Positions 8,226-29,299 of a stretch of 58,136 bases of DNA are shown in pieces (positions within the stretch are counted from its first letter, which is position 1; each line of letters begins with the position of its first letter). The notes beneath the pieces were generated by a model. It was not told where the DNA came from. It was given only the letters and a program-made list of their open reading frames with translations, and did not search any database. Origin of the DNA: an uncultured Syntrophobacterales bacterium (GTDB taxonomy: Bacteria > Desulfobacterota > BSN033 > WVXP01 > G020346125); contig CAYFXL010000002.1 in NCBI GenBank assembly GCA_964346945.1, positions 1 to 58,136 of the forward strand, written 5' to 3'. The position numbers and the translations under genes are program-made.

Positions 8226-8322
8226 ATTCTTACCCCCCAAAATGAAAAATAATGACTCATCTTCTGTAAAACGTCCTCAACTCAGCAAGAGGTGCCCTCT
8301 AGAACTGGGTCGTATGCCTTGT

Positions 8323-8514: not shown

Positions 8515-8574
8515 GCGGTACACCTCCTTTCATTCGCCTGAAATTCAGGCTGATGCTTGCTCCGCTTGGAAGCC

Positions 8575-9234: not shown

Positions 9235-9311
9235 CTAACCCTCCCTTATCTCTCCTTGAACTCTGAGTGTACCTAAATCTTTCAAAAGAACAAGAGTCAA
9301 TCGCGTATTCG

Positions 9312-10820
9312 CTATTGAGTGGAGTTTTTCCCCAGTTTTATGCGCTTGACGAATGAACGTGGAAGATGAACAACTGAAACTGGAAAGGTAACCATGTGGC
9401 GGAGTCCACCAACGGTGGAGAGATTTCGCATGTTCCTCCTTACCTGAGTAATGAGTTCATGGATGACAATTTCCTCCTCGACCTCACCACTCTCTTTTAC
9501 CCTCGTTAATCGGTGAATGCAGTATAAACCGATCAAAAATGCGAAGAGAAAGAAAAAATCCCAATGTTGGAAGTTAAGTGTGTCAAAAGCCAGGTCCCTT
9601 CCCGGACTTGTCCATTTAAACACCAGGGAAAGTTGACGCTCTGCGAAGAAATCGACAAACTTGCCGCCTAACACAGGTGCAATCCCAGCTGCCAGTGAAT
9701 TAACGAGATTATTAGCGGCCAAATATGCGGTCGCCTGACCCTTCGGTGCCAGCTTGAGCCCAATGTTTCCCGAAGCCAGAGTTACCCCCGCTGTTGAGAT
9801 CCCCATGAGGATGTGTATAACGACCAATAACGGGATAGTCAATATGTGCTTCTCTGGCATGGTTGTAAAGGCAAAAGCGATTATACATCCCATAAAGAGA
9901 GGCCCACTGACCCCCAGCACTGATTTATTGCTAAAACGGTCCGAGAAATTTCCCCAAAGTCGCAAAAATACGAGATTCATTATCTGACTGAGGACGGTAA
10001 AGGCAATGATGACCGACAGGTCAAGTTGCAACCTCTTGAGCATATAGACGGTAAAAAAGGGAGCGGCAAGATTGACCGCAAAATTCCAGGAACCTAAGAA
10101 CATGATAAGTTGTTTGAAATTTGAGTCCTTAAATGGTTGTAAAAACAAGGTAAAAAGATTTTTCTTTTCCTCTATGGGTCCTATGCGAGGCTCTGGTATG
10201 GTTGATATGAAGTAAACGCCAATCATACCCGCAATAAATCCCGCGGCAAATAGGATTGAATACCCGTATAACTCGAAATTGGGGAACTGTTTTTTCCAGT
10301 AATCAATATAAAAGGCGGAAGCCAGGCTGAGGGCGATACTCAACCCCATTGATAGGCTCATTCTCCTTGAAAAGAAGGCCCCCAATCGATCCTGCGGAAC
10401 GAGATCCCGCATCCAGGAGTTCCAACTGCAGTTTGATACTGCAGAGAAAGCCGAGTTGAGCATTATTGCGACAATAAGAAAGTTCAGGCTCGCTTCTTTT
10501 GGAAATAAAAAGGGGATCAAGGCTATGAACAACCAAAGAACTCTACCACCAGTGGACGTAGAAAAACTGATCGTCCTTCTGTTCCTCATTTTTTCAACTA
10601 GATAGACTGATGGAATCTGAAGCAGCTGAGCCAGGGGAGGAATAGCAGCCAAGAGCCCAATCACTAAGTTGGAGGCCCCGAGCTTCAACGCGAAGGCGAC
10701 GAGGAAGGGGCCTCCTGTTAAGGTGGCCATAGACGTACTAGCCATTCCGTCCCTTATGACCGCTCTGAGACCGGACTGAACCTCCTCCTCGGTCAGCGTG
10801 TCTTTGGCAGCGAACTGCAT
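9312..10820 (-). CDS. MFS transporter (about 500 aa; paralog of 23019..24542)
   Basis: Multi-TM profile with WGNFSDRFSNKSVL loop motif. The N-terminal half aligns by eye with the second MFS. Confidence 0.75.
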   Translation of the reverse strand: MQFAAKDTLTEEEVQSGLRAVIRDGMASTSMATLTGGPFLVAFALKLGASNLVIGLLAAIPPLAQLLQIPSVYLVEKMRNRRTISFSTSTGGRVLWLFIALIPFLFPKEASLNFLIVAIMLNSAFSAVSNCSWNSWMRDLVPQDRLGAFFSRRMSLSMGLSIALSLASAFYIDYWKKQFPNFELYGYSILFAAGFIAGMIGVYFISTIPEPRIGPIEEKKNLFTLFLQPFKDSNFKQLIMFLGSWNFAVNLAAPFFTVYMLKRLQLDLSVIIAFTVLSQIMNLVFLRLWGNFSDRFSNKSVLGVSGPLFMGCIIAFAFTTMPEKHILTIPLLVVIHILMGISTAGVTLASGNIGLKLAPKGQATAYLAANNLVNSLAAGIAPVLGGKFVDFFAERQLSLVFKWTSPGRDLAFDTLNFQHWDFFFLFAFLIGLYCIHRLTRVKESGEVEEEIVIHELITQVRRNMRNLSTVGGLRHMVTFPVSVVHLPRSFVKRIKLGKNSTQ

Positions 10821-11005
10821 TTCGGACCCTCGCTAAGCAAACTCAATCTTTTCCGTAACGTGGTTGCGTCCTGGATTTGCCGGGTAAGCAGACCAATCGT
10901 TGCAGGCCAGGAAATTTTTTCACCGATTGCAGCTCGAGTCTAAATTCCTTGGTCTCAATACCTCGACAACGTGGCTGCGGAAAGAATGCCTCCAATGGAT
11001 ATTGA

Positions 11006-11965
11006 CTATTCGCCTTTTGCGAGCCTTTGGGCCCGGGCGATTTGTTGTCCGAGCTGGATCCTTTCCTCAATAGGTAATTCCTCTACCTTCTCTGTATCGA
11101 CACCACTCAATCTTGGAAGAAGTCCGCTTCCATTGGCAATCTGGATGCTCAAGCCGGGCCTCGCGTTGAATTCCAGGACCATAGGCCCCTTTTGCCGATC
11201 GATTACCACGTCGACGCCCATGTAGCCGAGACCCGTCATCTCGTAGGAAAGAACCGCAATCTCCAGGATTTTATTCCAATGGGGGATTTTGATCCCTTCG
11301 ATCGGATTATTCGTATCGGGGTGACGGCTGACGACCCGATCATGGTGAACTCCCAGAAGGGTAACCCCCTCGCTGAGGTCCACTCCAACACCTATGGCCC
11401 CCTGGTGAAGGTTCGCCTTGCCGTCCGATTCTCTCGTAGGAAGCCTGACCATCGACATCACGGGAATTCCTTTATATACGATAACCCGGACATCCGGCAC
11501 ACCCTTATGAGCTATGTTTTCAAAGACAGGGGCCACCTCAACCCTGTACTCAATGAGGGCTTTATCGTCCTGTCCTCCAAGGGAGTAAAGCCCGGAGAGA
11601 ATTCCCGAAATATAATGCATCAAGTCCTCGGACGAGATTGTCTCACCGCTTGCCTTCTCAAACTGGTCTTTGCAGTGCCCCACAATGACGATTATACCTT
11701 CACCTCCGCTGCCCATGGATGGTTTCACCACGAACTGATCGTGAGTTGACACATTTTCGAGGACCTTGCGAATCTCATGGTGATATCGAATTATCCCGTA
11801 GAGTTCGGGAACCTTAATCCCTTTTTGGATGGCTAGTTGTTTTGAAAGTAATTTGTCATCTACGAGGGGATAGTACTTCCTCGGGTTGACCAAGAGCGTA
11901 AAGTCTGCATTTCTCCGGTTTATCCCCAATATTCCCCGTTTTTTCAGAGGATCAAACCACATCAT
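11006..11965 (-). CDS. Alpha-L-glutamate ligase-related (RimK-like) ATP-grasp protein
   Basis: ATP-grasp motifs FVVKPSMGSGGEGI, a central lid region and MVLEFNARPGL. The 4-nt start/stop overlap with the upstream 7TM gene suggests coupling. Confidence 0.8.
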   Translation of the reverse strand: MMWFDPLKKRGILGINRRNADFTLLVNPRKYYPLVDDKLLSKQLAIQKGIKVPELYGIIRYHHEIRKVLENVSTHDQFVVKPSMGSGGEGIIVIVGHCKDQFEKASGETISSEDLMHYISGILSGLYSLGGQDDKALIEYRVEVAPVFENIAHKGVPDVRVIVYKGIPVMSMVRLPTRESDGKANLHQGAIGVGVDLSEGVTLLGVHHDRVVSRHPDTNNPIEGIKIPHWNKILEIAVLSYEMTGLGYMGVDVVIDRQKGPMVLEFNARPGLSIQIANGSGLLPRLSGVDTEKVEELPIEERIQLGQQIARAQRLAKGE

Positions 11966-13608
11966 TTCTTTTCCGAAGAAATATCGGGAGAGCTTGGCGG
12001 GATGAGTTGTTCCCTCTTGTCCCCTTCAATGAAGCTGTGGAATCGGAAGCACTCCATTAGCCGATAGCCCGTATAGCGGCCCATGAGAATCTGTATCCCA
12101 ATTAATGCAAAAAGAATCTCGGGGAACGTGAAAAAGAAATCCTGGATCGAAACCCAAGACATCATCAAATAGCCACAGGTGGATACGAGGAGCGTACCCA
12201 GAGAAACCTTCAGAGCCTCCCTCGCCCCCCTTTCCATGAGAATGATGGAGAGCCTCTCGATGGTCATGGTCATGATGACCATGGGGAAGAGAGCCACGGC
12301 CAGGACCCGGTATATTCCCGCGTGGTGGCCAATGACGGAACCAACTGCCAAAATGATAACCAGAACCGTTACGACGACCGACAGTCTTGGTACCAGCAGA
12401 AGTTTCAGCCGGTCCATGAACCACCTTGATACCAGCCCAAGGGCAATGACTGCGGAGAATAGCACAAGTCCCCAACCCAGTTTCGTATTTCTAAAGGCCA
12501 ACGCGATGAGCACGGGCATGAACGTCCCGAAGGTATTGACTCCAATGATATTTCTGAAGAATGAGACGATCACGGCTCCTAGAGGAATCATGAGGATCAC
12601 TCGAAAGACCTGCTGAACCTCCACTGGGAGGGAGAAGAGCGACCATTCATGCACTATTGAACCCACTTTTGTGGCCGTGTCATAAAAGAAGCTAAAGGCC
12701 CACTGGTCCTCTTGTTTGACAGCAAAGCTGTACTCCAACCCTTTTACTCCCGAAGAAGTCATAAAAGGTCTATCGCCCCTGTAGAGGATCAGTGCAGTTT
12801 CGGGCAATTGCACGAACAACTGGTTTTCGATATCCACGGGGACCCATTTCCCCCCGAGAAAAACCTCGGCCCAACTGTGGACCATATTCTGCTTGCTCTC
12901 GTCGCCAAGGATTATCCCATGGACAGTCCGGGCTGGAACCCCTGCCACCCTCGAAAGGTAAATGAAAAGCTTCTTCTTCTCGACGATGGTTGCTTTTTTC
13001 GTCTTGATTGGTCCGGTTAAACTGGTGTCCTGGGAGAAGAGCACTGTCGCTACATCTTTTGAGAGGAAGTTATAGATAGTCCTTATTTTTTCAAGATTGT
13101 TTTCCTCTTTCCCGAACAACCCTTTGAGAAATTCTTCAATCTCAACATTGAAAGACTCCATTTCGGGTCTTGTGAAGAGATATTTCCCCACATTCGGAGG
13201 ATATTTTCGCTCCAACCCAATGATGGTTAACCTGTTTATTCTCGGCCTCGTCTGAACTGTCGCCCTGTAAAATACCCCGGAATCCCCTTTGAGTCGTATC
13301 CCCTTCCATTGAACAAAGGTGTTAAGGTCTTCCTTTCCTATGAAGAAATCGAGGGTCCTCGAGACGAAGTTCTCCTCTAGGACAATCTGCCCCATATCAT
13401 CGCTGGGCAGATAATGGCGGACCATAGCGTCTCGCCCGATACCCTGGAAGAGGATCTTCACCTCGATGGTCCAGAGGTTCTCGACGGCCTTGGATAGGAT
13501 GGGATACCTCAGGAACAAGACCTTATAAATAAATGGTCCGATGAACAAGACGATGAAAAAAGACGCGATAAGGAGAATGTTCTTTTTCCTTTTAATGGGG
13601 TCTTGCAT
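11962..13608 (-). CDS. Transglutaminase-like extracytoplasmic domain fused to a C-terminal 7TM module
   Basis: N-terminal TM, soluble region (...VAGVPARTVHGIILGDESKQNMVHSWAEVFLGGKWVPVD, transglutaminase-core-like). Seven predicted TM helices follow in the last 230 aa or so. Confidence 0.7.
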   Translation of the reverse strand: MQDPIKRKKNILLIASFFIVLFIGPFIYKVLFLRYPILSKAVENLWTIEVKILFQGIGRDAMVRHYLPSDDMGQIVLEENFVSRTLDFFIGKEDLNTFVQWKGIRLKGDSGVFYRATVQTRPRINRLTIIGLERKYPPNVGKYLFTRPEMESFNVEIEEFLKGLFGKEENNLEKIRTIYNFLSKDVATVLFSQDTSLTGPIKTKKATIVEKKKLFIYLSRVAGVPARTVHGIILGDESKQNMVHSWAEVFLGGKWVPVDIENQLFVQLPETALILYRGDRPFMTSSGVKGLEYSFAVKQEDQWAFSFFYDTATKVGSIVHEWSLFSLPVEVQQVFRVILMIPLGAVIVSFFRNIIGVNTFGTFMPVLIALAFRNTKLGWGLVLFSAVIALGLVSRWFMDRLKLLLVPRLSVVVTVLVIILAVGSVIGHHAGIYRVLAVALFPMVIMTMTIERLSIILMERGAREALKVSLGTLLVSTCGYLMMSWVSIQDFFFTFPEILFALIGIQILMGRYTGYRLMECFRFHSFIEGDKREQLIPPSSPDISSEKK

Positions 13609-13651
13609 TTCACCATTCCTAAATCAAGGAAGAGAAATGAATATTTTTCCT

Positions 13652-14167
13652 CTACGGTCGTCGGCAACTTGATCCCGCAACGAATTTCTTGCTCACATCC
13701 ACGATAAAATCCCCTTCCAGGGCCGTTCGTCCGAGAATCATCCTGTAGTTCCTCCCCCTTCGATCCGTCAAATTGACCCGAATCCGCTTCTTAATCCCCC
13801 CCAGGCAAATCTCCAGCTCGATCTCTGGCCTCATTTTCGTTGCCGACATTAATCCTCTAATTCGCGCTTCTCTCAAAACGTCGGCCTCAATTATTTGGTA
13901 TCTCCCTTTACGATCCATCGTCTTGAAACGGATTCGAGACCCCTTCGCCTTCCCCTTCTTGGTATACTCAACGTCCATCGCATGGATCGAAGAATTCTTC
14001 GCCCCCGTATCAATCTTTGCCGTCAAAACGAATTCATACTCGGAAAGATAAACCCTTTCTAGCCATCCAACAACTGTCTTCTCACCAGCGATGGCATCTT
14101 TCCTTTCAACGGGACTCATCAGAATCGCAAGAATGAGAATCACCATCCAAGAAAGATTTCTCGACAT
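13652..14167 (-). CDS. Secreted retropepsin-like aspartic protease (ATP-dependent zinc protease / RimB-like family)
   Basis: Signal-like N-terminus, AKIDTGAKNSSIH (D-T-G-A aspartic motif) and C-terminal MILGRTALEGDFIVDV. Confidence 0.7.
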   Translation of the reverse strand: MSRNLSWMVILILAILMSPVERKDAIAGEKTVVGWLERVYLSEYEFVLTAKIDTGAKNSSIHAMDVEYTKKGKAKGSRIRFKTMDRKGRYQIIEADVLREARIRGLMSATKMRPEIELEICLGGIKKRIRVNLTDRRGRNYRMILGRTALEGDFIVDVSKKFVAGSSCRRP

Positions 14168-14463
14168 GGTCGATCCCTCCCTAATCCCGCTTCAGAAGCC
14201 CATTAATTGAGGACGTTATCGCTCAATGCCCCATATGTCAAGTTCTTAGAGGACCATCAAACCGCACCAGAAAAGGCCCATCCCCATGGAGAATTAACAG
14301 GAAGTTAATGTCCTGTCGCAAAACCTAGCTGAACCTGAAACCGCGCACTGGACAGCAGACTTAACGCCCCATGGTCAAGCGCCGGCAACATCATGACTTC
14401 CTTTGCTCGGCTCTCTTTGAACTGCTTGCTTTACTGCAGGCTATCTCCGGTACATCTGAAAAA

Positions 14464-14766
14464 TCAGATGGTGGGTTTTTCCTCGGGAGGTTTCCTTTCA
14501 GGGGTTTTTCCCCTTGGCCTTCCCCTTAGCCCCTTTTCCAATCGATCGATGGCATCGGCCGTCTTATCCTTCACGGATTCTGTGACGGAAGTCAGTTTTT
14601 CAACCTGTTCCCTCAAGCTATCTCCCGTGCGGTCCTTGAGGGATTCCATGGTTGATGAAAGGGAATCGACCGTCTTCCTCAATTCCTGTGCCCCCCCGGT
14701 TCTCCGATAAGCCAGGATGGAAATGAGCAGGGCGATGATTGCAATAATTAAGGTTATGACCAACAT
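14464..14766 (-). CDS. Small membrane protein: N-terminal TM plus coiled-coil/LEA-like tail; sigma54-dependent
   Basis: ATG 14766 with AGGGGGT 8 nt upstream. A perfect -24/-12 promoter lies about 70 nt upstream. Paralog of 7959..8225. Confidence 0.7.
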   Translation of the reverse strand: MLVITLIIAIIALLISILAYRRTGGAQELRKTVDSLSSTMESLKDRTGDSLREQVEKLTSVTESVKDKTADAIDRLEKGLRGRPRGKTPERKPPEEKPTI

Positions 14767-14834
14767 AGTTGTTTACCCCCTTTCGGTGATGGGTTTCATT
14801 TCCTACCACACGAGGTAGCCTTCGATGCAATAAC

Positions 14835-14849
14835 GCAACAAGCGTGCCA
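14835..14849 (-). promoter_or_regulatory. Sigma54 (-24/-12) promoter, leftward
   Basis: Minus strand reads TGGCAC-gcttg-TTGCG, which is gcaacaagcgtgcca on the plus strand. All 10 core positions match TGGCAC-N5-TTGC. Confidence 0.8.
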
Positions 14850-14902
14850 TCTTATTAACATATTGAATTTATTTAATATTTTTATTTCAAGGGATCATTT
14901 CA

Positions 14903-15048
14903 GGAACTCTCGGTTCCGAAAATTACGTCCGCCCATCCCATCTGCGCGGTGAAACAAAGGCGGAGGTCATTCCATTCCTTGCAAAGAGGGGAAACGGAAA
15001 AATGGAATTTAGAGTTCCGGTTGCTGACATATCGGAACTGGGAGTTCT
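14903..15048. promoter_or_regulatory. Upstream activator sites: three GGAAC-N5-GTTCC dyads (14903-14917 perfect; 15004-15018; 15034-15048)
   Basis: Sequences are ggaactctcggttcc, ggaatttagagttcc and ggaactgggagttct. Start-to-start spacing is 101 and 30 bp. Confidence 0.7.
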
Positions 15049-15299
15049 CATTGGCTAGGACGTTTTCAGAATAGGATGTCACCGGCTGCGTCTTTCTTGG
15101 AAACGTCTCAGCTCTTGAAGGTTCACGGTTTTCGGGGTATCTGACCTGCGTCTAGAACACGTAATCCACTTTTTTGATCGGCAGTAGATCAACCATATGG
15201 AAATCGGTATAATTACGGATAATTGATTTCGTTTATAAACGGACAGCAATTAGCCACGGTTTTGGAGGGTTCGATAAGGAAGAACATGGGGGGCCACAA

Positions 15300-16706
15300 G
15301 TGAAATCTATTCTTATTGCATCCCAGAACAATACGTCAAACAAAGTCCTTCAGGAAACCTTTGCTCCGGAGTATACGGTTGATACGGTATCCAGTAAGGC
15401 ATCATGCCTCGATAAGTTCATGCAGAGACGGTATGATTACACCTTTATCGACGTTGAACTGCTTCGTGAGGAAAGCAACGTACAAGGTCATTATGACTAT
15501 AAGACCGCCCTGCAGCCGTTTCGGGAAGCGTTTCCGACTGCCCAAATCATCGTTATGTCCTCTCAGGAGATGATAAGAGAAGCCGTCATGGCAGTAAAGG
15601 TAGGTGCCAGTAACTATCTTACCTACCCCATCGATAAAGAGGAGGCAAGATACATCGTCCAGAGCCTCTATGAATCCGTCAGGATGGAGTCGGAGCTGGA
15701 CTTTCTGCGGGACAGTTTTTGGGAGGCGGATTCTCTTGAGGTTGTCGAAACAAACAGCCCGTTGATGAGAGAAGTATTCGAAAAAGTCCGAGCAGTAGCG
15801 CCAACGAAAAGTACCGTCTTGCTCACCGGCGAAACCGGGACCGGAAAAGGAGTTGTGGCTAAGCTGATTCATCGTCATAGCCGCAGAAATGAAAAGCAAT
15901 TTATCAGTATCCATTGCGGAGCGATCCCCGATACGCTTCTTGAAAGCGAACTCTTTGGGCATGAAAAGGGGGCTTTTACCGGCGCTCTGCGGAGGAAGCT
16001 GGGGAAGTTTGAGCTCGCTCATGGGGGAACGATTTTCCTCGACGAAATCGGGACCGTCACTCCATCTGCCCAGATTAAGCTCTTGGGAGTATTGCAGGAT
16101 AAGAGTTTTCAACGGGTCGGCGGAGAGGCTACTATCGAAGTCGATGTAAGAATCATTACGGCAACAAATACAGATCTGAAGAAATTGACCGATGAAGGGT
16201 TTTTCAGAAGTGATCTGTACTATCGGTTGAGCGTATTTCCCATCGAAATTCCTCCATTAAGGGAGAGAAAAGAGGATATTCCGGTTATCTCAAGACATAT
16301 CCTGAAGAGACTAAACACATTTCATTCAAAAAAAATCGAAGACATTCATCCCCAGGTTCTGGAAGCTTTTTATCGGTATTCGTGGCAAGGCAACATACGA
16401 GAGCTGGAAAACCTCATAGACCGTGCATACATCCTGGAACCCTCCTCCATGCTCACCCCTGAGAGCTTTCCAAGCGAACTATTCACCCCCGGAGATACCC
16501 GGGCACAGCTCCCTCTCGATAAGGCCCTTACCATAGCGGAGGTACGGCGTCGTGGTATCGAAACCATTGAAAAAAAATACTTAAACGAACTCTTGACCTC
16601 ACACAAAGGGAGAATTTCAAGGACCGCGCAGGCTGCTGGGATAAGTGTCCGACAATTGCACAAGCTGATGACCAAATATGGAATACAGAAAGAACAGTTC
16701 AAGTAA
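15300..16706 (+). CDS. Sigma54-dependent transcriptional activator (degenerate receiver domain, AAA+ domain, Fis-type HTH)
   Basis: Walker A GETGTGKG, GAFTGA loop (GHEKGAFTGA), Walker B IFLDEIG and C-terminal HTH ISRTAQAAGISVRQLHKLMTKYGI. GTG start 15300 lies after a G-rich SD. Confidence 0.9.
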   Translation: MKSILIASQNNTSNKVLQETFAPEYTVDTVSSKASCLDKFMQRRYDYTFIDVELLREESNVQGHYDYKTALQPFREAFPTAQIIVMSSQEMIREAVMAVKVGASNYLTYPIDKEEARYIVQSLYESVRMESELDFLRDSFWEADSLEVVETNSPLMREVFEKVRAVAPTKSTVLLTGETGTGKGVVAKLIHRHSRRNEKQFISIHCGAIPDTLLESELFGHEKGAFTGALRRKLGKFELAHGGTIFLDEIGTVTPSAQIKLLGVLQDKSFQRVGGEATIEVDVRIITATNTDLKKLTDEGFFRSDLYYRLSVFPIEIPPLRERKEDIPVISRHILKRLNTFHSKKIEDIHPQVLEAFYRYSWQGNIRELENLIDRAYILEPSSMLTPESFPSELFTPGDTRAQLPLDKALTIAEVRRRGIETIEKKYLNELLTSHKGRISRTAQAAGISVRQLHKLMTKYGIQKEQFK

Positions 16707-16728
16707 CCCCAACCAAAATACATGGACC

Positions 16729-16874
16729 GGAATTTCGAGTTCCGATAATCCGGCTGTAAGAACCAAAAGTTCCTGTTTTCAGTTTCCCTTTTATTTCAAC
16801 TCCTTAAAGCATTTCAAAAAGCCTAACTCAAGGCAGGCGGAGCGTCGTTTCCCAGGACCGGAACTGTTAGTTCC
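16729..16874. promoter_or_regulatory. Upstream activator sites: three GGAAC-N5-GTTCC dyads (16729-16743; 16759-16773; 16860-16874 perfect)
   Basis: Sequences are ggaatttcgagttcc, agaaccaaaagttcc and ggaactgttagttcc. Spacing is 30 and 101 bp, the mirror image of the left set. Confidence 0.7.
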
Positions 16875-16921
16875 GATATATTGTCATCCATGATTCGCCC
16901 ATAATCCATAAAAGCTTGAAA

Positions 16922-16934
16922 TATCAATAGGTTA
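16922..16934 (+). promoter_or_regulatory. IHF-like bending site between the proximal dyad and the -24 element
   Basis: TATCAATAGGTTA fits WATCAANNNNTTR. The context is AT-rich. Confidence 0.3.
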
Positions 16935-16940
16935 TAACAC

Positions 16941-16955
16941 TGGCACGGCTTTTGC
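16941..16955 (+). promoter_or_regulatory. Sigma54 (-24/-12) promoter, rightward
   Basis: TGGCAC-ggctt-TTGCT lies about 55 nt upstream of GTG 17010, which has AGAGGAGG 6 nt upstream. Confidence 0.8.
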
Positions 16956-17009
16956 TGACGGTACTGCTAGGGTTCATACATACTGAGAAAAGTCAAGAGG
17001 AGGTAAGAG

Positions 17010-17378
17010 GTGAACTGGAGATTTTGGGAAAGGAAAATCGGTGCGGGAGAACCATCAGGGGCAAAAATGAAAAAGCTGCCGAGACCAAAGAATATCCCGG
17101 AGCCAGTGGGAAGGCATCTGGTTGTGAAGCTGGGAAAGAATCCCGATTGGGTCTGGAACCTTAAGGGCGCGGTGCGGCCTCGGGCGGAGGGGAAAAGTTG
17201 TTACGACGTTCGAATTTTCGATATGGCTGAGGCAGCTCGAAAGAGTGTGACCGTTAGGGACTACACGTCTCTTGATGAGCACCCGGAATTGGTCCTGTAC
17301 GAGGGATGGTTTGATAAGAAGACATTAAGGGTAGAAATCGAGAATAAACAGTCCTCACCGAAGCCGGCAACTGCCTAG
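17010..17378 (+). CDS. Hypothetical protein (122 aa), first gene of the sigma54 operon
   Basis: GTG start with a strong SD. No domain recognised. Alternative ATG at 17067. Confidence 0.5.
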   Translation: MNWRFWERKIGAGEPSGAKMKKLPRPKNIPEPVGRHLVVKLGKNPDWVWNLKGAVRPRAEGKSCYDVRIFDMAEAARKSVTVRDYTSLDEHPELVLYEGWFDKKTLRVEIENKQSSPKPATA

Positions 17379-17524
17379 TGCGGAAGGTCCAGCGGGATGC
17401 TTTTTCCGCAACTCGTCTTCCAAGCAGCGAGGGAGTTGAAAAGGAAAGTGACCTGAGCCTGATCATGGGTGGAACAACGACATTAGTTCAAGGTCCATTG
17501 CCATTCGTGTGGAGTTACTGGCAA

Positions 17525-17854
17525 ATGAAGCGGTATATTGAGCAGATCCCTATCAGAGGGATTATAATTCCGGTAGACTGGGATCAGGCAGGTAATGTTA
17601 TTAAGGCCGCCATTCTCACCGGTGACGAAGGGGAATATTTGATCGAGGAAAACACAGAGTCCCAGCAATTATTCTATTTGTTGCGCCGGGAAGTGGAGGT
17701 AAGAGGCGTGGTGAGGGAAGAAGCTGGTAGTAAAATAATCAGCGTAGAGAATTTCCGGGAGACCAAATCAGACCGGGGATGGACGGTTTCAGAGTCCATG
17801 AACATAAAACGCAAAGGAGGAAATAAGAATGGAGGAAGTTCCAGCCTGTCCTGA
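17525..17854 (+). CDS. Hypothetical small protein (about 110 aa) overlapping the kamA start
   Basis: ORF 17378..17854 trimmed to ATG 17525 (MKRYIEQIPIRGIIIPVDWDQAGNVIKAAILTGDEGEYLIEEN...). Its 3' end overlaps kamA by 26 nt. No domain recognised. Confidence 0.45.
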   Translation: MKRYIEQIPIRGIIIPVDWDQAGNVIKAAILTGDEGEYLIEENTESQQLFYLLRREVEVRGVVREEAGSKIISVENFRETKSDRGWTVSESMNIKRKGGNKNGGSSSLS

Positions 17855-19019
17855 CGATCACCCTTCCAAGGCAGGGGGTCTTCGGGTATTTTTTGATCAA
17901 GAAACACCCGAAGCAATCCGCCCATGGAATGGTGTGTCCCCCGAACAATGGAACGACTGGAAATGGCAACTTTTCCATCGGATATTCACCTTTGATAAAT
18001 TAAAAACCGCAATTCACCTGACAAAGAGCGAAGAAGAAGCGATTCGCCTGTGCTGGCACAAATTCCCCATGGCTATCACGCCGTACTTCACATCCCTTCT
18101 CGATCCATTCAATCCGAGATGCCCAATCCGATTGCAGTGTATCCCTCGAAAGAAGGAATTGGTTGTTGGGAAGAACGACATGATAGACCCGTGTGGCGAA
18201 GACCAAGATGCTGTGGTTCCCAACCTTGTCCATCGCTATCCAGATCGAGTACTTTTACTCGCCACCACGAAGTGCGCCGTCTACTGCCGATATTGCACTC
18301 GCAGGAGATTGGTAGGAAGGCGGGAGGTTGACATTACGCAAGAAAATCTGGATGCCATCTGGACCTACCTCCGAAAAAACAAGAAAATCCGAGACGTGCT
18401 GATTTCAGGCGGGGATCCATTCCTCCTGGAGGATACCCGTCTGGAATCGATTCTCAGACAGCTTCGAGCTATTCGCCATATCGAGATCGTAAGGATCGGG
18501 ACCCGTGTTCCCGTCACATTACCCATGAGGGTGACTGAAAGTTTCGCCAGCATGCTTCGTCAATATCACCCCCTTTTCGTTAACATCCACTTTACTCATC
18601 CCAAGGAGATCACGCCCGAAGTTCGAGAGGCTTGCAGTATCCTGGCGGATGCGGGAATACCCCTGGGAAGCCAGACCGTCCTTCTTCGAGGAATCAACGA
18701 CCAACCGTCCACCATCAAACAATTAGTCCACGAACTGCTGAAGATCAGGGTTCGTCCTTACTATCTCTATCAATGCGATCCTGCCATGGGCATCGATCAC
18801 TTCAAGACTCCTATATCGAGGGGAATCGAAATTATTCAATCCCTTCGAGGGTTCACGACAGGACACGCCGTCCCGACTTACGTGATCGATGCACCGGGAG
18901 GAGGCGGGAAGATCCCAGTAGGGCCGGACTATGTTCTAGGCTACCAAAACGGAGTTATGACGTTGAGGAATTACGCTGGCGAAATATACCACTATCGTGA
19001 AGCCAGAAAAGGGGCTTGA
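17829..19019 (+). CDS. kamA: Lysine 2,3-aminomutase (radical SAM/PLP, KamA/AblA family)
   Basis: CAVYCRYCTRR cluster motif, LISGGDP and PLP-Lys motif APGGGGKIP. Asp is retained in YQCDPAMG and VIDAPGG, the positions that bind the lysine epsilon-amine. SD AAAGGAGGAAA lies upstream. Confidence 0.85.
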   Translation: MEEVPACPDDHPSKAGGLRVFFDQETPEAIRPWNGVSPEQWNDWKWQLFHRIFTFDKLKTAIHLTKSEEEAIRLCWHKFPMAITPYFTSLLDPFNPRCPIRLQCIPRKKELVVGKNDMIDPCGEDQDAVVPNLVHRYPDRVLLLATTKCAVYCRYCTRRRLVGRREVDITQENLDAIWTYLRKNKKIRDVLISGGDPFLLEDTRLESILRQLRAIRHIEIVRIGTRVPVTLPMRVTESFASMLRQYHPLFVNIHFTHPKEITPEVREACSILADAGIPLGSQTVLLRGINDQPSTIKQLVHELLKIRVRPYYLYQCDPAMGIDHFKTPISRGIEIIQSLRGFTTGHAVPTYVIDAPGGGGKIPVGPDYVLGYQNGVMTLRNYAGEIYHYREARKGA

Positions 19020-19038
19020 AGCCCAGGAGGAGTATCAG

Positions 19039-20001
19039 TTGTCCGAAGCCGTGGACTTAGGCATTGCATGGGAGTGGGAATTCGATGCCGATTTCGTTTT
19101 CAGACTAGACAGAGCCTGTCAACAGGTCGGATTAAGTAGCTATATCGTGCACCCGAACAATCTCTTTGAAACGTGGGAGAGCGTTCAAAAGGGTTCCCTA
19201 TCCTTCCGAACTTTCTTGGATCGGGGTTCAGATAATGTGGAGACTATTCGGGCCCTAGTACGGCACCTCAAGGATATGGGGAAACCGCTCATCAATGACC
19301 CCGATCTTTTGCTGCGGGCAAACGATAAGGCCGTCATGCACTTAGAACTTCTAACCAGGGGAGTAGATGTTCCCTATACGATCATTGTTGGTCCCCAAGA
19401 GGGGGATCACATCCAGGATGTCCCTGAGCTCCAGCACATCGGGACCCCCTTCATCATCAAGCCGGCCAACGGCGGAGGAGGCCGGGGCGTTATCCTTGGC
19501 GCCCAGGATAAAGTCGACGTGGTGAAAGCCCGAAAAATCCTGTGGGGCGACACGATGCTGCTTCAGGAAGAGATCCAGCCCGCCCAACTTCCCCTTGGGA
19601 TGGCTTGGTTTCGCACCTTCATGGTGGACCAAAACGTTCATCTGTGCTGGTGGAATAAGGATACTCATGTCTACCGACCGGTGTTACCCATTGAGGAGGT
19701 CGAATTCGGTTTAGACATGCTGAGAAACATCACCAGAAAGATCGGAGAGGTTTGCCGACTGACGCTTTTTTCCACCGAAATCGCCCAATCCAGTGGCGGG
19801 CGATTTGTGGCCGTTGATTATGTCAATGACCAGCCCGACTTCAGGCCCCGCTCAAAGGCGCCCGACGGGGTCCCTGATCCTGTTTTGAATAATATTGTGA
19901 TGGATATTGTTCGCTGGGTCAAAGAATATGTCCAAGCAGATGAGAGCCGGGGTTCACCTGTCATTCCTCAGACGAAAGGGGAGATCGAGAGGAACGGATG
20001 A
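19039..20001 (+). CDS. ATP-grasp amide ligase (RimK/GshB-like)
   Basis: DKAVMHLELLTRGVDVP, FIIKPANGGGGRGV and LLQEEI motifs. Start is either TTG 19039 (AGGAGG 8 nt upstream) or GTG 18997, which overlaps the kamA end by 23 nt. Confidence 0.7.
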   Translation: MSEAVDLGIAWEWEFDADFVFRLDRACQQVGLSSYIVHPNNLFETWESVQKGSLSFRTFLDRGSDNVETIRALVRHLKDMGKPLINDPDLLLRANDKAVMHLELLTRGVDVPYTIIVGPQEGDHIQDVPELQHIGTPFIIKPANGGGGRGVILGAQDKVDVVKARKILWGDTMLLQEEIQPAQLPLGMAWFRTFMVDQNVHLCWWNKDTHVYRPVLPIEEVEFGLDMLRNITRKIGEVCRLTLFSTEIAQSSGGRFVAVDYVNDQPDFRPRSKAPDGVPDPVLNNIVMDIVRWVKEYVQADESRGSPVIPQTKGEIERNG

Positions 20002-20061
20002 CTCGTGAGAACGGTATATCAGGCTTGCATTCATCCATTACGAAGCACAGGAGAGATGAAG

Positions 20062-21126
20062 ATGAGAATTGGCATCGCCTATGATCTAAAACACGACTTT
20101 TCCATCGATGGGGGACATCCTGACGATTGGCTCGAAGAGTACGACTCTGAAGGCACTATCCAGGCCGTTCAAGATGCAATTGAGGCGCTGGGTCACGAAG
20201 TTTTCCGCCTTGGGGGGGGACGAACCTTCTTGGAACGGATTAGCACCACTCCGGTCGACATGGTCTTTAACCTTGCCGAGGGATGGAAAGGGAGAAACAG
20301 AGAAGCTCACATTCCGGCCTTCCTTGAGATGTTGGAGATTCCCTTCACCCACTCTGACCCATTGACCCTCGCCGTGACCCTTGACAAGGGGATGGCCAAG
20401 AGAATTGTCATCAGCGAGGGAATTCCAACCCCGGCTTTCAAGCTGATGAAGAGTCAAATGGAAGCGGAGAATATAGGCCTTTCATTCCCTCTCTTTGTTA
20501 AGCCGGCCTACGAGGGATCGAGCAAAGGGATCAGCTCCCACTCACGGGTCAACGATGAAGGGGCATTAAAACGTGAGATTGGCCGTCTCTTGGATAACTA
20601 TGGGACACCAGTCCTGGTTGAAACCTTTCTCCCTGGAAGGGAATTCACCGTGGGTATCTTCGGGAATGGTTCACCCTATGTGCTCGGGATCATGGAAGTA
20701 GCCCCTTCCGAAGGCTCGGTTGAGAACTTCATCTATTCTGTTACGGCGAAGCGAGACAGTGATCAGAGAGTCCGATACAGATGTCCCCCAGATCTTTCTG
20801 CCTCGCTGTTACAACGGATCGAGGAGGTTGCACTCGGCTCATACAGGGTTCTCGGATGTAGAGACGTTGCCCGAATCGATATTCGTCTTGGCGACGATGG
20901 CACCCCCTATTTTCTCGAGGCAAATCCCTTACCTGGACTCGCCCCGGGATACAGCGACCTGGTGATCATTGCAGAGTTTATGGGATGGTCCTATGGGCAA
21001 CTCATTGAGACTATTCTGTGCCACGCTTTTGGGCGGTACGGCATCGATGAAAAAGCATACAGTGACATTTCCCTCGTGATGAGGCAAACCGCCCGAACGC
21101 GACCGGCGGCCTCCCACCCTAGCTAG
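20062..21126 (+). CDS. D-alanine--D-alanine ligase-family ATP-grasp ligase (paralog 1)
   Basis: MRIGIAYDLK..EYDSEGTIQAVQDAIEALGHEV, LFVKPAYEGSSKGIS, VLVETFLPGREFTVG and YFLEANPLPGL. ATG 20062 lies 8 nt after GGAG. Confidence 0.75.
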   Translation: MRIGIAYDLKHDFSIDGGHPDDWLEEYDSEGTIQAVQDAIEALGHEVFRLGGGRTFLERISTTPVDMVFNLAEGWKGRNREAHIPAFLEMLEIPFTHSDPLTLAVTLDKGMAKRIVISEGIPTPAFKLMKSQMEAENIGLSFPLFVKPAYEGSSKGISSHSRVNDEGALKREIGRLLDNYGTPVLVETFLPGREFTVGIFGNGSPYVLGIMEVAPSEGSVENFIYSVTAKRDSDQRVRYRCPPDLSASLLQRIEEVALGSYRVLGCRDVARIDIRLGDDGTPYFLEANPLPGLAPGYSDLVIIAEFMGWSYGQLIETILCHAFGRYGIDEKAYSDISLVMRQTARTRPAASHPS

Positions 21127-21183
21127 TTCAATCAACTCAAAAAGCATGATGGGGATTGGATTTTCCCGGTAAAGGGGGATTTC

Positions 21184-22203
21184 TTGGAAAAGTCGCCCGT
21201 TGCAATTGTCTACAATGAGCCCGTCAGCCCGGAGGACTCCTATTCCGAAGCCTCCCGCGATATTCTCGATCAAGTTGAGGCTGTCGAGGGAAGTCTCACC
21301 ACGCTAGGGGTTCCCTCGATCCGTATTCCCTTCACCCGGGATTTGCCATCTTTTGTGGATAAAATCTCGGGTGCGGGGATCCAATATGCCTTCAACCTCT
21401 GTGAATCAGTAGACGAGAATCCCCGGTTGGTTGGATACCCAGCTGCCGTCATGGATATTCTCGGCGTTTCATACACGGGATCTTCCTCGCTGGCACTGGC
21501 GATAACCACGGATAAACTGTATACGAAGTGGCTTTTGAGGGCTCAAGGGGTTCTCACACCCAAATTCGAGACCTACGATAATAGGTTACTCCCCAAACTG
21601 AAAGGCCTCAGGTTTCCGGTTATCATAAAACCTCGGTTCGAGGATGCCTCCATCGGGATCGACCAGGAGTCTGTTGTGAGTGACGAGAAGAAGTTGAGGG
21701 AAACGCTTCCGGAATTCCACGATCGTTTTGGCCCTCTCATCCTAGAAGAGTACATCTCAGGCAGGGAGTTCAATGTGTCGCTCTTTGGGTACCCATCATC
21801 CCATGTGATGCCCATCGCCGAGATATCCTTTGATGGTTTTCCCGGGGAACTCTATCCCATCGTGGGATACAGGGCGAAGTGGGATAGAGAATCATTTGAG
21901 TATCATCACATGCCTCGACTGTTTCCAAAGGATCTTCCGGAGATTCTGGAAAGGAGGATCCGTCGCGCAGCCATGGATTGTTTCCAGCACTTCATGCTGA
22001 GAGATTACGCCCGTGTTGACTTTAGGGTAAACCATTCCGGAGTTGCCTATGTCCTGGAGATCAACGCCAACCCCTGCATCAGCCCCGACGCGGGATTTCC
22101 GGCAGCTCTGGCAGAAGCTGGAATTGACTATGACGGGTTCGTGCGTCAAATGCTCGATTTTGTTCAAAAGAGAAGGGGGGAGACTCATTCTCCAGAGCAT
22201 TGA
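21184..22203 (+). CDS. D-alanine--D-alanine ligase-family ATP-grasp ligase (paralog 2)
   Basis: VAIVYNEP..., VIIKPRFEDASIGID, LILEEYISGREFNVS and YVLEINANPCISP. TTG start follows AAGGGGGA. Confidence 0.75.
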   Translation: MEKSPVAIVYNEPVSPEDSYSEASRDILDQVEAVEGSLTTLGVPSIRIPFTRDLPSFVDKISGAGIQYAFNLCESVDENPRLVGYPAAVMDILGVSYTGSSSLALAITTDKLYTKWLLRAQGVLTPKFETYDNRLLPKLKGLRFPVIIKPRFEDASIGIDQESVVSDEKKLRETLPEFHDRFGPLILEEYISGREFNVSLFGYPSSHVMPIAEISFDGFPGELYPIVGYRAKWDRESFEYHHMPRLFPKDLPEILERRIRRAAMDCFQHFMLRDYARVDFRVNHSGVAYVLEINANPCISPDAGFPAALAEAGIDYDGFVRQMLDFVQKRRGETHSPEH

Positions 22204-22263
22204 AGGGGTTCCAAAACCCTGGCTATAGACCAACATGAACGAACATGGAGCCATGAGAGATAC

Positions 22264-22842
22264 ATGAAAAGAACTGCGAAGCTCGAAACTCTGAAGAAGC
22301 TGAGCTTCATCGAGAAAAGGAAAATTCGAAGGCCTTTCACCCTGAGGGGAAGAGAGGGAGAGTCGGAGATTCGCTTTAGGACACTCAAACGTGCGGATAG
22401 GGAAAAAATCCGAGAGGTTCTGGAGGATGTTAAATCCTTTACCCCTGAAGAGATTTCGGTCGCACTTTCCCTGCTGGATGAGACTTTAGGTGGTAGTACT
22501 GCCTATCGTTTTCTGGTTGCAACCGACGAACGTGACACGGCCCTCGGTTACATCTGTTATGGCCAGGCTCCCATGACCTCTAGCACCTGGGATATCTACT
22601 GGATCGCAGTCTCCAGGAGATTTCAGAAAAGACATATCGGCAATATGCTCCTTCGAGGGGCTGAAGACGAGATTTGTGCTGAAGGAGGAAGGCTGATCAT
22701 CATTGAAACGTCAACTAAACCATCTTACCGTTCTACCAGGAGATTTTATGAGAAGATGGGATATCGCGTGAGCGCGAGGATTGCGAAATTCTATTCCGAG
22801 AGAGATGACAAGCTCGTCTACAGCAAGTATTTTTCGTCCTGA
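22264..22842 (+). CDS. GNAT-family N-acyltransferase
   Basis: Acyl-CoA binding segment IAVSRRFQKRHIGNMLL and C-terminal FYEKMGY. Confidence 0.75.
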   Translation: MKRTAKLETLKKLSFIEKRKIRRPFTLRGREGESEIRFRTLKRADREKIREVLEDVKSFTPEEISVALSLLDETLGGSTAYRFLVATDERDTALGYICYGQAPMTSSTWDIYWIAVSRRFQKRHIGNMLLRGAEDEICAEGGRLIIIETSTKPSYRSTRRFYEKMGYRVSARIAKFYSERDDKLVYSKYFSS

Positions 22843-23018
22843 GGGAAGGCACGTGGACCGTTCAGATCATCCCTCCCGTGATAATTTCGTACTCCATTAT
22901 GAGTCCAATGGAAAGACCGAAAAATCCTTCCATGAAGTTCTCAAAGAACGACCTTCGTTGAAGGAGTTTTAGACGCTCATGGTACTAGGCCATAGCCCTT
23001 TGTAATTCTGAGGTGTGC

Positions 23019-26171: not shown

Positions 26172-26282
26172 GGGTTGCCAGAGCACTTTGGGAGCACATT
26201 ATCATTTGAAGAAACGAGGGAATTACTGATAGTTGTTCTCCACAATTAACGAAACCGGAATATTACTTGGAGGGACATTTAT

Positions 26283-29287: not shown

Positions 29288-29299
29288 AGGACAGCTACG

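Follow-up and report, generated by a model that had tools for sequence, protein, structure and literature searches.

Conserved three-dyad sigma-54 promoter modules with IHF-like sites, linked to an NtrC-class activator gene and a putative stress regulon in relatives of sediment sulfate reducers

The window analysed here, i.e., the whole stretch of 58,136 nucleotides from contig CAYFXL010000002.1 of an uncultured Syntrophobacterales bacterium, contains at positions 15300–16706 (+ strand) a gene for a sigma-54 enhancer-binding protein of 468 amino acids, in which Pfam searches and the translation revealed a degenerate receiver, an AAA+ domain with GAFTGA and an HTH_8 domain. In particular, Sigma54_activat (PF00158) was matched over the full model length (5.7e-68), together with AAA_lid_14, and the sequence GHEKGAFTGA is present in the translation. 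HTH_8 (PF02954) was found at residues 420–460 (7.7e-6, 26 bits with respect to a cut-off of 22), and the receiver fold was recognized by Response_reg (PF00072) with 33 bits, the cut-off being 30.2. The closest relatives in the PDB were NtrC1, FleQ and ZraR. Judged from its sequence, this product is an NtrC-class sigma-54 activator, and the domains found bear out an earlier note on this DNA, which had placed a GAFTGA-containing activator between two promoters.

With regard to the receiver, Q-N stands in place of the acidic DD pair in the window protein, this position being variable among orthologues, and the conserved Lys has given way to Tyr in 26 of the 27 aligned members of the family and to Ser in the remaining one (L021), a Lys-to-Tyr change also borne out by a HMMER alignment to Aquifex NtrC1. 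The Thr/Ser position varies as well, the sole residue kept among the 27 being the Asp equivalent to NtrC Asp54. The residue set of a phosphorylated two-component receiver is thus incomplete, the acidic pair and the Lys being lost and the Thr/Ser variable. We also scanned the 93 proteins of at least 180 amino acids whose genes lie no more than 3.5 kb from that of the activator, in the window and in 27 orthologous loci: no histidine kinase appeared among the 25 families shown, each of which was matched by at least two of these proteins, and no kinase was found among the annotated open reading frames of the window. With the acidic pair and the Lys gone from the receiver and no kinase gene linked to the activator, its control is probably independent of phosphorylation. 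The label 'orphan' given to it previously understates the case, the receiver itself being degenerate.

Two perfect matches to TGGCAC-N5-TTGC, the only ones in the whole window, flank the activator gene and face outward. The right -24/-12 promoter (TGGCACGGCTTTTGC, TGGCAC-GGCTT-TTGC) lies at 16941–16955 (+ strand) and ends 55 nt before the GTG at 17010, and the left one (TGGCACGCTTGTTGC, TGGCAC-GCTTG-TTGC) lies at 14835–14849 (− strand) and ends 69 nt before the ATG at 14766. Both carry GG at -24 and GC at -12 in this context, and when one mismatch was allowed, six matches were observed in the window compared to 2.6 expected. The element forming the left promoter was also present, at the equivalent place, in the relatives L040, L091 and L142. 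Next to the right promoter, a perfect match to the IHF consensus WATCAA-N4-TTR (TATCAATAGGTTA) is found at 16922–16934 (+ strand), and the left arm carries a site with one mismatch (ATTCAATATGTTA) at 14856–14868 (− strand). These predicted sites, which lie between the dyads described below and the promoters, hold the same position in both arms, 6 nt from the -24 element. The divergent promoter pair with its distances, as well as the right IHF-like site, had been described in the earlier note and were recovered in full. A second IHF-like element (TTTCAACTCCTTA, one mismatch) lies at 16794–16806 (+ strand) between the right distal dyad pair and the right proximal dyad, and no good counterpart to it was found in the left arm when this was checked against the IHF consensus.

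Upstream of each promoter, three copies of the dyad GGAAC-N5-GTTCC (unstranded) were located. On the left, the proximal dyad D3 (GGAACTCTCGGTTCC, 14903–14917) is perfect and starts at -68 from TGGCAC, and the distal dyads D2 (15004–15018, -169) and D1 (15034–15048, -199) have one mismatch each. On the right, D1 (16729–16743, -212), which starts 23 bp past the activator stop codon, and D2 (16759–16773, -182) also have one mismatch each, and the proximal D3 (GGAACTGTTAGTTCC, 16860–16874, -81) is perfect. Ten dyads with at most one mismatch were found in the window compared to 2.8 expected, a number reached in none of 100 shuffles, and six of the ten fall inside the intergenic DNA on either side of the activator gene (two regions, about 840 bp, where about 0.04 are expected). 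All six dyads reported before are present at the coordinates given and far above chance, and their start-to-start spacings are 101 then 30 bp on the left and 30 then 101 bp on the right, as described. As a small correction to the picture of two mirror-image enhancers, the distance from the promoter is 11–13 bp, around one helical turn, greater for the right module than for the left module and the family norm. The likeness noted between the flanks of the two distal pairs is real, left and right aligning over about 65 bp.

In order to establish how widely this layout is conserved, as the earlier note had proposed to check, the module was approached from two sides: from 27 orthologous activator loci (59–71% identity), and from a metagenome scan whose query was built from proximal dyad, IHF core and promoter alone, with 20 gap lengths allowed, and which yielded at least 119 contigs. 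About 20 of the 27 loci had sigma-54 promoters with upstream dyads at the three offsets seen in the window, so that, with the motif-found contigs, the check was passed; about 7 loci had no clear module, some of them being short contigs, and in L001 the module was recognisable but degenerate. The family module comprises dyads starting at about -202, -172 and -70 from TGGCAY and an IHF consensus at -19 to -7, and the promoter consensus over 115 aligned modules reads TGGCACg...aTTGCt. Despite the 20 gap lengths, 140 of the 144 scan matches were confined to four of them (match length 82–85 nt), the right arm of the window being an outlier with 95 nt, and the norm for the proximal dyad is -68 to -71. 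The distal dyads, which were absent from the query, peaked at -202 ± 3 (70 hits) and -172 ± 2 (55 hits), with only 16 of 265 dyad hits lying beyond the three peaks. All three dyads were complete in 108 of 152 modules, in contrast to none of 760 controls with shuffled distal DNA; the D1–D2 spacing was 30–31 bp in 105 of 109 cases, and that of D2–D3 mostly 102–103 bp. In 22 of the 27 activator-linked modules, the IHF consensus was matched at -19 with no more than one mismatch; the corresponding figure of 127 of 136 in the enlarged set is inflated, because the IHF core belonged to the scan pattern. A second IHF-like site was observed at -137 ± 1 in 48 of 136 modules.

As for linkage, an activator hit of 58% identity or higher was obtained for at least 45 of the 119 contigs found by motif, and the family-specific N-terminal domain was present in 40; most of the module-bearing contigs in which no activator gene is visible are short. 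In the three closest relatives (76–80% identity), the activator gene likewise lies between two complete modules in divergent orientation. Among orthologues, D1 typically starts 26–27 bp past the activator stop codon, which suggests that gene and dyad have been inherited as one unit. Furthermore, related contigs can bear several modules (up to four in L016 and L027), and altogether the layout was found at more than 150 promoters of relatives of sediment sulfate reducers.

The right arm begins with u122 (17010–17378, + strand), a protein of 122 amino acids from an unnamed family, which had no match in Pfam or NCBIfam and is encoded behind 24 modules. It is followed by u158 (17378–17854, + strand), a small OB-fold protein, also of an unnamed family, which is the commonest regulon member (63 modules) and for which 14 homologues carried neither a name nor a Pfam domain. 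From the alignment, the real start of u158 is probably Met50, at 17525; the core of its AlphaFold2 model (pLDDT 80–88) matches OB folds. The rest of the arm (17829–26741, + strand) encodes a KamA/AblA-like aminomutase, a RimK-like ATP-grasp protein, two Ddl-like ATP-grasp ligases, a GNAT protein, an MFS transporter, an M20 dipeptidase-like protein and a DksA-like protein, and the best terminator-like hairpin on the + strand lies at 26779–26807. About 30 modules are followed by the series kamA, Ddl, Ddl, GNAT (then M20). The AblA/AblB pathway for N-epsilon-acetyl-beta-lysine was considered for this cluster and rejected: the aminomutase scored 497.9 bits against TIGR03820, slightly below the cut-off of 525.4, and the GNAT protein matched RimI-like models only, below their cut-offs, and no AblB model. 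Since three ATP-grasp ligases and an M20 dipeptidase-like protein are encoded together, a different, peptide-like product is indicated, and the KamA/ATP-grasp/GNAT/M20 cluster may make an undescribed solute; its position behind the modules flags it as a candidate for stress induction.

On the left, the first gene (14464–14766, − strand) encodes a protein of 100 amino acids that combines a transmembrane helix at its N-terminus with a coiled coil and gives a weak match to DUF948 (Pfam, 3e-4, under the curated cut-off), homologues of which (79–82% identity) are the first gene behind a module in L091, L119, L126 and L142. Further along the − strand, Pfam and NCBIfam searches identified an RloA-like retropepsin (13652–14167), an RloB-like inactive transglutaminase with seven transmembrane helices (11962–13608), an RloC-like ATP-grasp protein (11006–11965), an MFS transporter (9312–10820) and a TrkA_C protein (8575–9234). 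Domain types and gene order are those of rloABC, although only the RloC-like protein passes its model (TIGR02291, 431.7 bits with respect to 314.2), the RloA-like (78 bits, cut-offs 210–280) and RloB-like (324 bits, cut-off 900) proteins being far below the NCBIfam cut-offs. The rloABC, MFS transporter and TrkA_C genes may share a transcript with the first gene. In L119, a module is followed by the first-gene homologue, a LapA-like gene, rloA and rloB, and such an arrangement of rloA/rloB behind the first-gene homologue was seen on one or two contigs only. Control of the rlo genes from the left promoter is less certain than that of the first gene, because a gap of 297 bp separates the latter from rloA and the rlo genes are absent in the close relative L142. 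On this comparative evidence, the rlo genes are a lineage-specific regulon member and not part of the core.

We consider it quite likely that the module works as an activator-bound enhancer with IHF and sigma-54, the activator co-controlling both arms of a stress regulon. Conservation, linkage, layout and recurring targets all speak for what the earlier note had proposed, namely that one activator would bind the dyads and co-control both arms. Activator dimers would bind the dyad cGGAAC-N5-GTTCCg via the C-terminal HTH_8 domain, and three such dimers would provide the six subunits of the active AAA+ ring. Bending of the upstream DNA would then carry the distal pair to the proximal dimer, IHF bound next to the promoter would bend the DNA so as to deliver the ring to the closed sigma-54 holoenzyme complex, and ATP hydrolysis together with the GAFTGA loop would open this complex. 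Since the activator gene lies between two outward-facing modules, one protein would co-activate two arms, with the DUF948-like membrane protein and probably then rloABC, the MFS transporter and the TrkA_C protein as predicted leftward targets, and the two unnamed small proteins followed by KamA, the ATP-grasp ligases, GNAT, MFS, M20 and DksA-like proteins as predicted rightward targets.

It is co-location that suggests the link between the activator and the dyads, so that the dyads might be bound by a regulator encoded elsewhere, with the adjacent activator acting through other, unrecognised sites. This would fit the many module-bearing contigs that show no activator gene in the available DNA, and binding by the activator is itself read from sequence; we nevertheless regard it as very unlikely, because sigma-54 promoters depend on an activator and the upstream dyads, about -90 and -200 from the start, occupy the usual activator positions. 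Moreover, the activator gene was the sole regulator consistently linked to modules, whether we searched from the activator or from the motif, D1 adjoins its stop codon in many orthologues, and a position-by-position consensus of the aligned modules showed no other conserved upstream element. That the dyads are instead RNA or DNA hairpins (terminators of the activator gene or a mobile repeat), and the likeness of the two intergenic regions an inverted duplication without regulatory meaning, appears extremely unlikely. A terminator scan did mark 16859–16875 and 16746–16726 as weak stem-loops, and the alignment of the two distal regions would also be accommodated. However, the stems are just 5 bp long, the mismatched copies are uncompensated (GGAAT...GTTCC, AGAAC...GTTCC), which argues that sequence and not pairing has been kept, and dyads also precede promoters with no gene end nearby. 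Their positions track the -24 element, not stop codons or element boundaries, and are fixed with respect to the promoter at the more than 150 promoters although the intervening DNA has diverged. A search of the module region against Rfam gave no match.

The genes recurring behind modules comprise u122, u158, the KamA/ATP-grasp/GNAT/M20 cluster, GroES-GroEL (17 modules), Hsp20 (10 modules), DksA-like (12 modules), mechanosensitive-channel-like and DUF948-like genes. Across relatives, the regulon would thus join chaperones, putative compatible-solute synthesis and membrane/turgor proteins, a role in osmotic or general stress being the most likely. That the same architecture serves a proteotoxic or heat-shock response instead, with the KamA and rlo operons as lineage-specific additions, is possible but somewhat unlikely. 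Such a response would agree with the GroES-GroEL, Hsp20 and DksA-like counts and with the restriction of module-preceded rlo genes to the closest relatives; on the other hand, the commonest enzyme targets are the KamA/ATP-grasp/GNAT/M20 clusters, genes for GT4/HAD proteins, MscS-type channels, CorA and c-di-AMP cyclase recur beside the activator, and genes of the trehalose/alpha-glucan, TrkA_C, CdaA and rlo types abound in the window around its module. The two responses are not exclusive, since a general stress response would cover both, and the regulon mixes heat-shock-type and osmotic-type genes. Returning to the osmotic or general stress role, a more far-reaching proposal, which we put forward tentatively and hold to be rather unlikely, would make the family the master switch of sigma-54-dependent general stress and osmoadaptation in these sediment sulfate-reducer relatives: a non-phosphorylatable pseudo-receiver activator that forms its active hexamer only where three dyads and two IHF bends provide a rigid scaffold and is tuned by means other than a kinase. 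Candidates for such tuning would be u122 and u158, which are its most frequent targets and lie closest to it and might feed back on it as PspA does on PspF, or a turgor-related signal such as c-di-AMP, the cyclase gene recurring near the activator.

Dozens of sigma-54 activators are encoded by the sulfate reducers and syntrophs of marine and estuarine sediments; to our knowledge, most of these have no known target, and stress and osmotic regulation in these organisms is poorly understood. For one activator family, a candidate binding motif, promoter architecture and regulon thereby become readable directly from metagenomes. Our literature search found no paper on this activator family, dyad motif or regulon; the type of mechanism (activator, upstream sites, IHF, sigma-54) is textbook, with OrpR and NorR, both studied by experiment, as near precedents, and the regulon is undescribed. 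NtrC, which acts at glnAp2, has the same domain order as the window activator (receiver, AAA+, Fis-type HTH) and binds dyads, as is proposed for the latter; the half-sites of the NtrC dyads are one helical turn apart, with a strong site pair about three turns apart far upstream of glnAp2. Its canonical receiver is phosphorylated by NtrB, in contrast to the window family, which lacks the acidic pair, the Lys and a linked kinase; furthermore, glnAp2 uses no IHF, and the NtrC motif and regulon differ from those of the window family. The psp system is a sigma-54 stress regulon, as the window modules are proposed to serve, in which the gene of the activator, PspF, is divergent from its target, with upstream sites, IHF and no phosphorylation control. 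PspF has no N-terminal regulatory domain and is restrained by PspA, a kind of partner for which u122 and u158 would be the candidates here.

In Desulfovibrio vulgaris Hildenborough, the gene of the activator OrpR separates two sigma-54 operons that run in opposite directions and are co-activated by OrpR; a palindromic activator site and a functional IHF site belong to each of them (PMC8359166). The likeness to the window extends to the placement of the activator gene and to the palindromic and IHF-type sites of each arm, and the OrpR host is a sulfate reducer of the same broad group as the MAGs carrying the orthologous loci. OrpR differs in its redox-sensing PAS domain, which carries an Fe-S cluster and stands in place of a degenerate receiver, in having one 17-bp palindrome (GGGCGYRTTTTGCGCCC) per operon instead of three GGAAC-N5-GTTCC dyads, and in a regulon limited to the two orp operons, whereas contigs of the window family carry several modules upstream of varied stress genes. 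The orp operons were reportedly studied by Fievet et al. in 2011 and 2014, as cited in the OrpR paper.

At norVW of E. coli, three dyads have been read as three NorR dimers templating one hexamer, with IHF between enhancer and promoter, and the enhancer DNA was proposed as an assembly ligand (PMC2831303). The activator gene divergent from its target and the three dyads with an IHF-type site are shared with the window; NorR differs in its NO-sensing GAF domain and in its three contiguous GT-N7-AC sites within about 66 bp, compared to a two-plus-one split here, with about 87 bp in between and often an IHF-like site within it. Three dyads are present and conserved in 108 of 152 modules, albeit in this split form, and each dyad may be required. 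A fixed geometry of three dyads with one or two IHF-like sites, found at more than 150 independent promoters, offers a test case for the templating of AAA+ rings.

Finally, the rloABC operon of Pseudomonas aeruginosa has been linked to hypo-osmotic stress tolerance (PMC12239564), and that paper, as consulted, contains no mention of sigma-54 control of the operon. The left arm shares with it, in the same order, the retropepsin-like peptidase, the inactive transglutaminase fused to seven transmembrane helices and the ATP-grasp protein, and the module upstream of this arm suggests a possible regulatory context for rlo-like genes outside Pseudomonas.

The promoters, dyads, spacings and IHF-like site that an earlier note had described on either side of the sigma-54 activator gene (15300-16706, +) were each found in place when positions 14600-17200 were read, and the observation is real. 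Two -24/-12 promoters were read from the sequence, TGGCAC-GGCTT-TTGC at 16941-16955 (+) and TGGCAC-GCTTG-TTGC at 14849-14835 (-), and these are the only perfect TGGCAC-N5-TTGC sites in the window. Perfect GGAAC-N5-GTTCC dyads are located at 14903 and 16860, and copies with one mismatch at 15004, 15034, 16729 and 16759. Successive dyad starts are 101 and 30 bp apart on the left side, and on the right side the order is reversed (30 bp, then 101 bp). When up to one mismatch was allowed, 10 dyads were present in the window compared to 2.8 expected, a number reached by no shuffle; six of the 10 sit in the approximately 840 bp of intergenic DNA flanking the activator gene, where about 0.04 are expected. 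Furthermore, a perfect IHF-like site (WATCAA-N4-TTR) was identified at 16922-16934 on the right side, and a copy with one mismatch was found at the equivalent position on the left (14868-14856), 6 nt from the -24 element.

Conservation of the dyads and of their spacing in orthologous loci, a check named beforehand, was confirmed both from the activator side and from the motif side. By scanning one genome per species, we found 27 loci encoding activator orthologues (59-71% identity), all of them from MAGs titled Desulfobacterales, Desulfarculaceae, Desulfatiglandales, Syntrophobacteria and similar groups. About 20 of the 27 harbor TGGCAY-N5-TTGC promoters with upstream dyads starting at -202/-203, -172/-173 and -70 ± 2 (counted from the T of TGGCAY), and several (L016, L027) carry three or four such modules, each consisting of two distal dyads (D1 and D2), a proximal dyad (D3), IHF-like sites and the promoter. 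Once the modules of the activator-linked loci were aligned on their promoters, aTATCAAtagGTTA at -19 proved almost invariant, and a second ATTTCAA-N4-TTR element was present at about -137 in many of them.

From the motif side, metagenomes were scanned with a pattern comprising only the D3 core, the IHF core and the promoter, in which the stretch separating the D3 core from the IHF core could take any of 20 lengths. At least 119 contigs matched and, among the matches listed, 140 of the 144 were confined to four adjacent gap lengths. The distal dyads, which were absent from the query, clustered at -202 ± 3 (70) and -172 ± 2 (55) in the 136 listed modules with sufficient upstream DNA, and just 16 of 265 dyads among the matches listed fell off the three peaks. 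Complete D1-D2-D3 triplets, with at most two mismatches per dyad, were present in 108 of 152 listed modules and in none of 760 in which the distal DNA had been shuffled. Likewise among the matches listed, D1 and D2 were 30-31 bp apart in 105 of 109 modules, and D2 and D3 were mostly separated by 102-103 bp. The activator itself (≥58% identity) was encoded on at least 45 of the 119 motif-found contigs and its distinctive N-terminal domain on 40, again among the matches listed. The closest relatives among these matches (L040, L091 and L142; 76-80% identity) are likewise arranged divergently, their activator gene being flanked by two complete modules, one to either side. Insofar as comparing sequences can show it, these results support the proposal that one activator would co-control the genes leftward of 14766 (left arm) and those rightward of 17010 (right arm).

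Within the window, the dyad offsets are -199, -169 and -68 for the left arm and -212, -182 and -81 for the right arm, which indicates that the entire right enhancer block is displaced by about one helical turn. In particular, the right arm has 11-13 bp extra between D3 and the IHF site (16875-16921) compared to the left arm and to L040, L091 and L142, and this also sets it apart from 140 of the 144 modules among the matches listed.

Variants of the module were also observed. The best orthologue of the genome collection (L001, 71% identity) shows the full architecture at 7425-7655, including both IHF sites, with dyads so degenerate (just the outer CGGAA...CCG is retained) that the module was overlooked by the one-mismatch search. 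In three other loci, on the minus strand (L005, ~620-760; L007, ~430-570; L012, ~520-660), a single dyad, AGAAC-TATTT-GTTCT, replaces the three-dyad layout and lies ~120 bp upstream of TGGCACAAyTGTTGC, a promoter divergent from the activator gene.

In the activator, a receiver-like domain is combined with a GAFTGA-containing AAA+ domain for sigma-54 interaction and with a Fis-type HTH. Alignment with Escherichia coli NtrC and Aquifex NtrC1 revealed that the acidic pair is lost in all orthologues, that the conserved receiver Lys is replaced by Tyr in nearly all of them (motif LTYP) and that the Thr/Ser position is not conserved; the one key receiver residue retained is the counterpart of NtrC Asp54. 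Of 93 proteins whose genes neighbour the activator gene in the 27 loci, none belonged to a recurrent kinase family. Therefore, "pseudo-receiver activator" is a better description than "orphan response regulator"; "orphan" alone says too little about a protein whose receiver is itself degenerate.

Our comparison establishes which elements are present, that their geometry is fixed, that they are linked to the activator gene and which genes accompany them; what follows on mechanism is modelled on NtrC-class activators. An activator dimer would bind each dyad through its HTH, and three dimers would supply one hexamer. The IHF site adjacent to the promoter would bend the DNA, letting the ring reach the closed complex, which ATP hydrolysis would then open. 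More tentatively, the second IHF-like site, or intrinsic bending of the DNA there, would fold the upstream region so that the distal pair meets the dimer at D3. The additional 11-13 bp of the right arm fit a face-of-helix requirement.

Both the topology and the triplet have precedents. In Desulfovibrio vulgaris, the OrpR gene is flanked by a divergent pair of sigma-54 operons, both of which carry a palindrome and an IHF site (PMC8359166), which is the same topology as that of the window. For NorR, three dyads have been interpreted as binding three dimers that form a hexamer, with enhancer DNA as the assembly ligand (PMC2831303), a precedent for reading the modules described here in the same way. 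The present system differs from both in its motif, in the grouping of its sites (two plus one, separated by an IHF-like site), in the pseudo-receiver, and in how broad the regulon is and what it contains. No published description of the activator or the motif was found in the sigma-54 literature on osmotic stress, acetyl-beta-lysine or Hsp20/GroEL in Deltaproteobacteria, and neither the D. vulgaris sigma-54 regulome paper nor a 2025 cross-phylum survey of sigma-54 regulons describes them. The system belongs to a well-understood type and not to a novel one; what makes it useful is a stress regulon that is both widespread and cleanly defined, an enhancer geometry of unusual rigidity and a set of several targets that await characterisation.

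The right arm begins with two unnamed small proteins, u122 (122 aa; 17010-17378, +) and u158 (17378-17854, +). The former has a conserved N-terminal W-x-F-W-K/E-K/R motif. Homologues of u158 begin at Met50 of the window protein, at 17525, which is probably its true start. With regard to structure, the core of the AlphaFold2 model of u158 (residues 55-130, pLDDT 80-88) adopts a generic OB fold, from which no functional assignment follows, and the protein had no Pfam or NCBIfam match. Further downstream on the same strand are genes for a KamA/AblA-like aminomutase (17829-19019), a RimK-like ATP-grasp protein (18997-20001), two Ddl-like ATP-grasp ligases (20005-21126 and 21184-22203), a GNAT acetyltransferase (22264-22842), an MFS transporter (23013-24542), an M20 dipeptidase-like protein (24684-26171) and a DksA-like protein (26283-26741), after which the best plus-strand terminator-like hairpin is located (26779-26807). 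No Rfam RNA family was detected in 8000-27500. The classical AblA/AblB pathway to N-epsilon-acetyl-beta-lysine was considered for this arm and rejected because the GNAT protein is not AblB-like. That the product is an acetylated peptide with a beta-amino acid in it may reasonably be guessed, no more.

The left arm, on the minus strand, starts with a membrane-anchored coiled-coil protein of 100 aa with a weak DUF948 match (14464-14766), followed by an RloA-like retropepsin (13652-14167), an RloB-like inactive transglutaminase with seven transmembrane helices (11962-13608), an RloC-like ATP-grasp protein (11006-11965), an MFS transporter (9312-10820) and a TrkA_C protein (8575-9234). A homologue of the first gene also heads the genes behind a module in L091, L119, L126 and L142, and is followed by true rloA and rloB in L119, probably in L126 and not in L142. 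Between the first gene and rloA, the window has a 297-bp gap without a convincing ORF (14168-14463); in these four loci, that position is occupied by a gene for a 116-aa LapA-like protein with two transmembrane helices, which, judging by this comparison, appears to have been lost from the left arm. An apparent occurrence of RloA behind eight modules was rejected as an artefact, since it arose from the merging of one ORF in L119, where the protein of 116 aa is a LapA-like membrane protein in its own right.

The genes downstream of 158 modules among the matches listed were clustered and annotated. The commonest family was u158 (~97 aa, no Pfam domain), which is found behind 63 modules and is often repeated in tandem, and no other family adjoins the activator gene as constantly; the u122 family lies behind 24 modules, usually immediately before or after u158. 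The KamA/Ddl-like ligase/GNAT/M20 cluster follows about 30 modules, GroEL 17 (usually with GroES ahead), DksA-like proteins 12 and Hsp20 10. Rarer members include a mechanosensitive-channel transmembrane-helix protein, a pair formed by an MFS transporter and a peptidoglycan-binding protein, a GT4 glycosyltransferase with a HAD phosphatase, GH130 enzymes, a large MscS-type channel and CorA. Since right-arm families recur behind modules and rlo genes follow few of them, the right arm is part of the conserved core of the regulon and the rlo genes are a lineage-specific addition. In Pseudomonas aeruginosa, rloABC has been tied to hypo-osmotic stress tolerance (PMC12239564). Taken as a whole, the annotations point to a role in the osmotic or general stress response; the gene content fits osmotic and proteotoxic stress alike and does not separate them.

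A third, weakly module-like arrangement in the window, at 4519-4740, comprises TGGCATAGAATATGC at 4726 (+) and dyad-like sequences at -207 and -65, and precedes a possible 66-aa ORF (ATG at 4813). Its -12 element is off consensus, its dyads have one or two mismatches and do not sit at the expected offsets, and position -19 lacks an IHF site; it is therefore probably not a member and was rejected as a firm one. In addition, TGGCACAGCTTTTGG at 45373-45387 (-) matches the sigma-54 promoter pattern with one mismatch and falls within a mechanically called ORF (44582-45781, -) that has no Pfam match; it may be a chance match, or the start of the ORF may be miscalled.

Directly downstream of the right arm, an alpha-glucan/trehalose metabolism cluster (27293-40868) encodes GlgE, a TreS-maltokinase fusion, a GlgB-like protein, MalQ and two further alpha-amylase-family proteins, which, from their domains, are possibly TreZ-like and TreY-like. 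Motif scans of the window revealed no dyad or sigma-54 module ahead of this cluster; in L004, the genes downstream of the activator include one for a homologue of the TreS-maltokinase fusion. The gene at 41053-42504 (-) encodes a YbbR domain fused to a c-di-AMP cyclase, the latter consisting of a DAC domain and a CdaA N-terminal domain. In two of the orthologous loci, too, DAC and YbbR proteins are encoded no more than 3.5 kb from the activator; c-di-AMP is known to act as a signal in osmoregulation. Finally, a CorA-type transporter is encoded at 5281-6363 (-), and corA genes are located just downstream of the activator or of its module in L009, L011 and L014.
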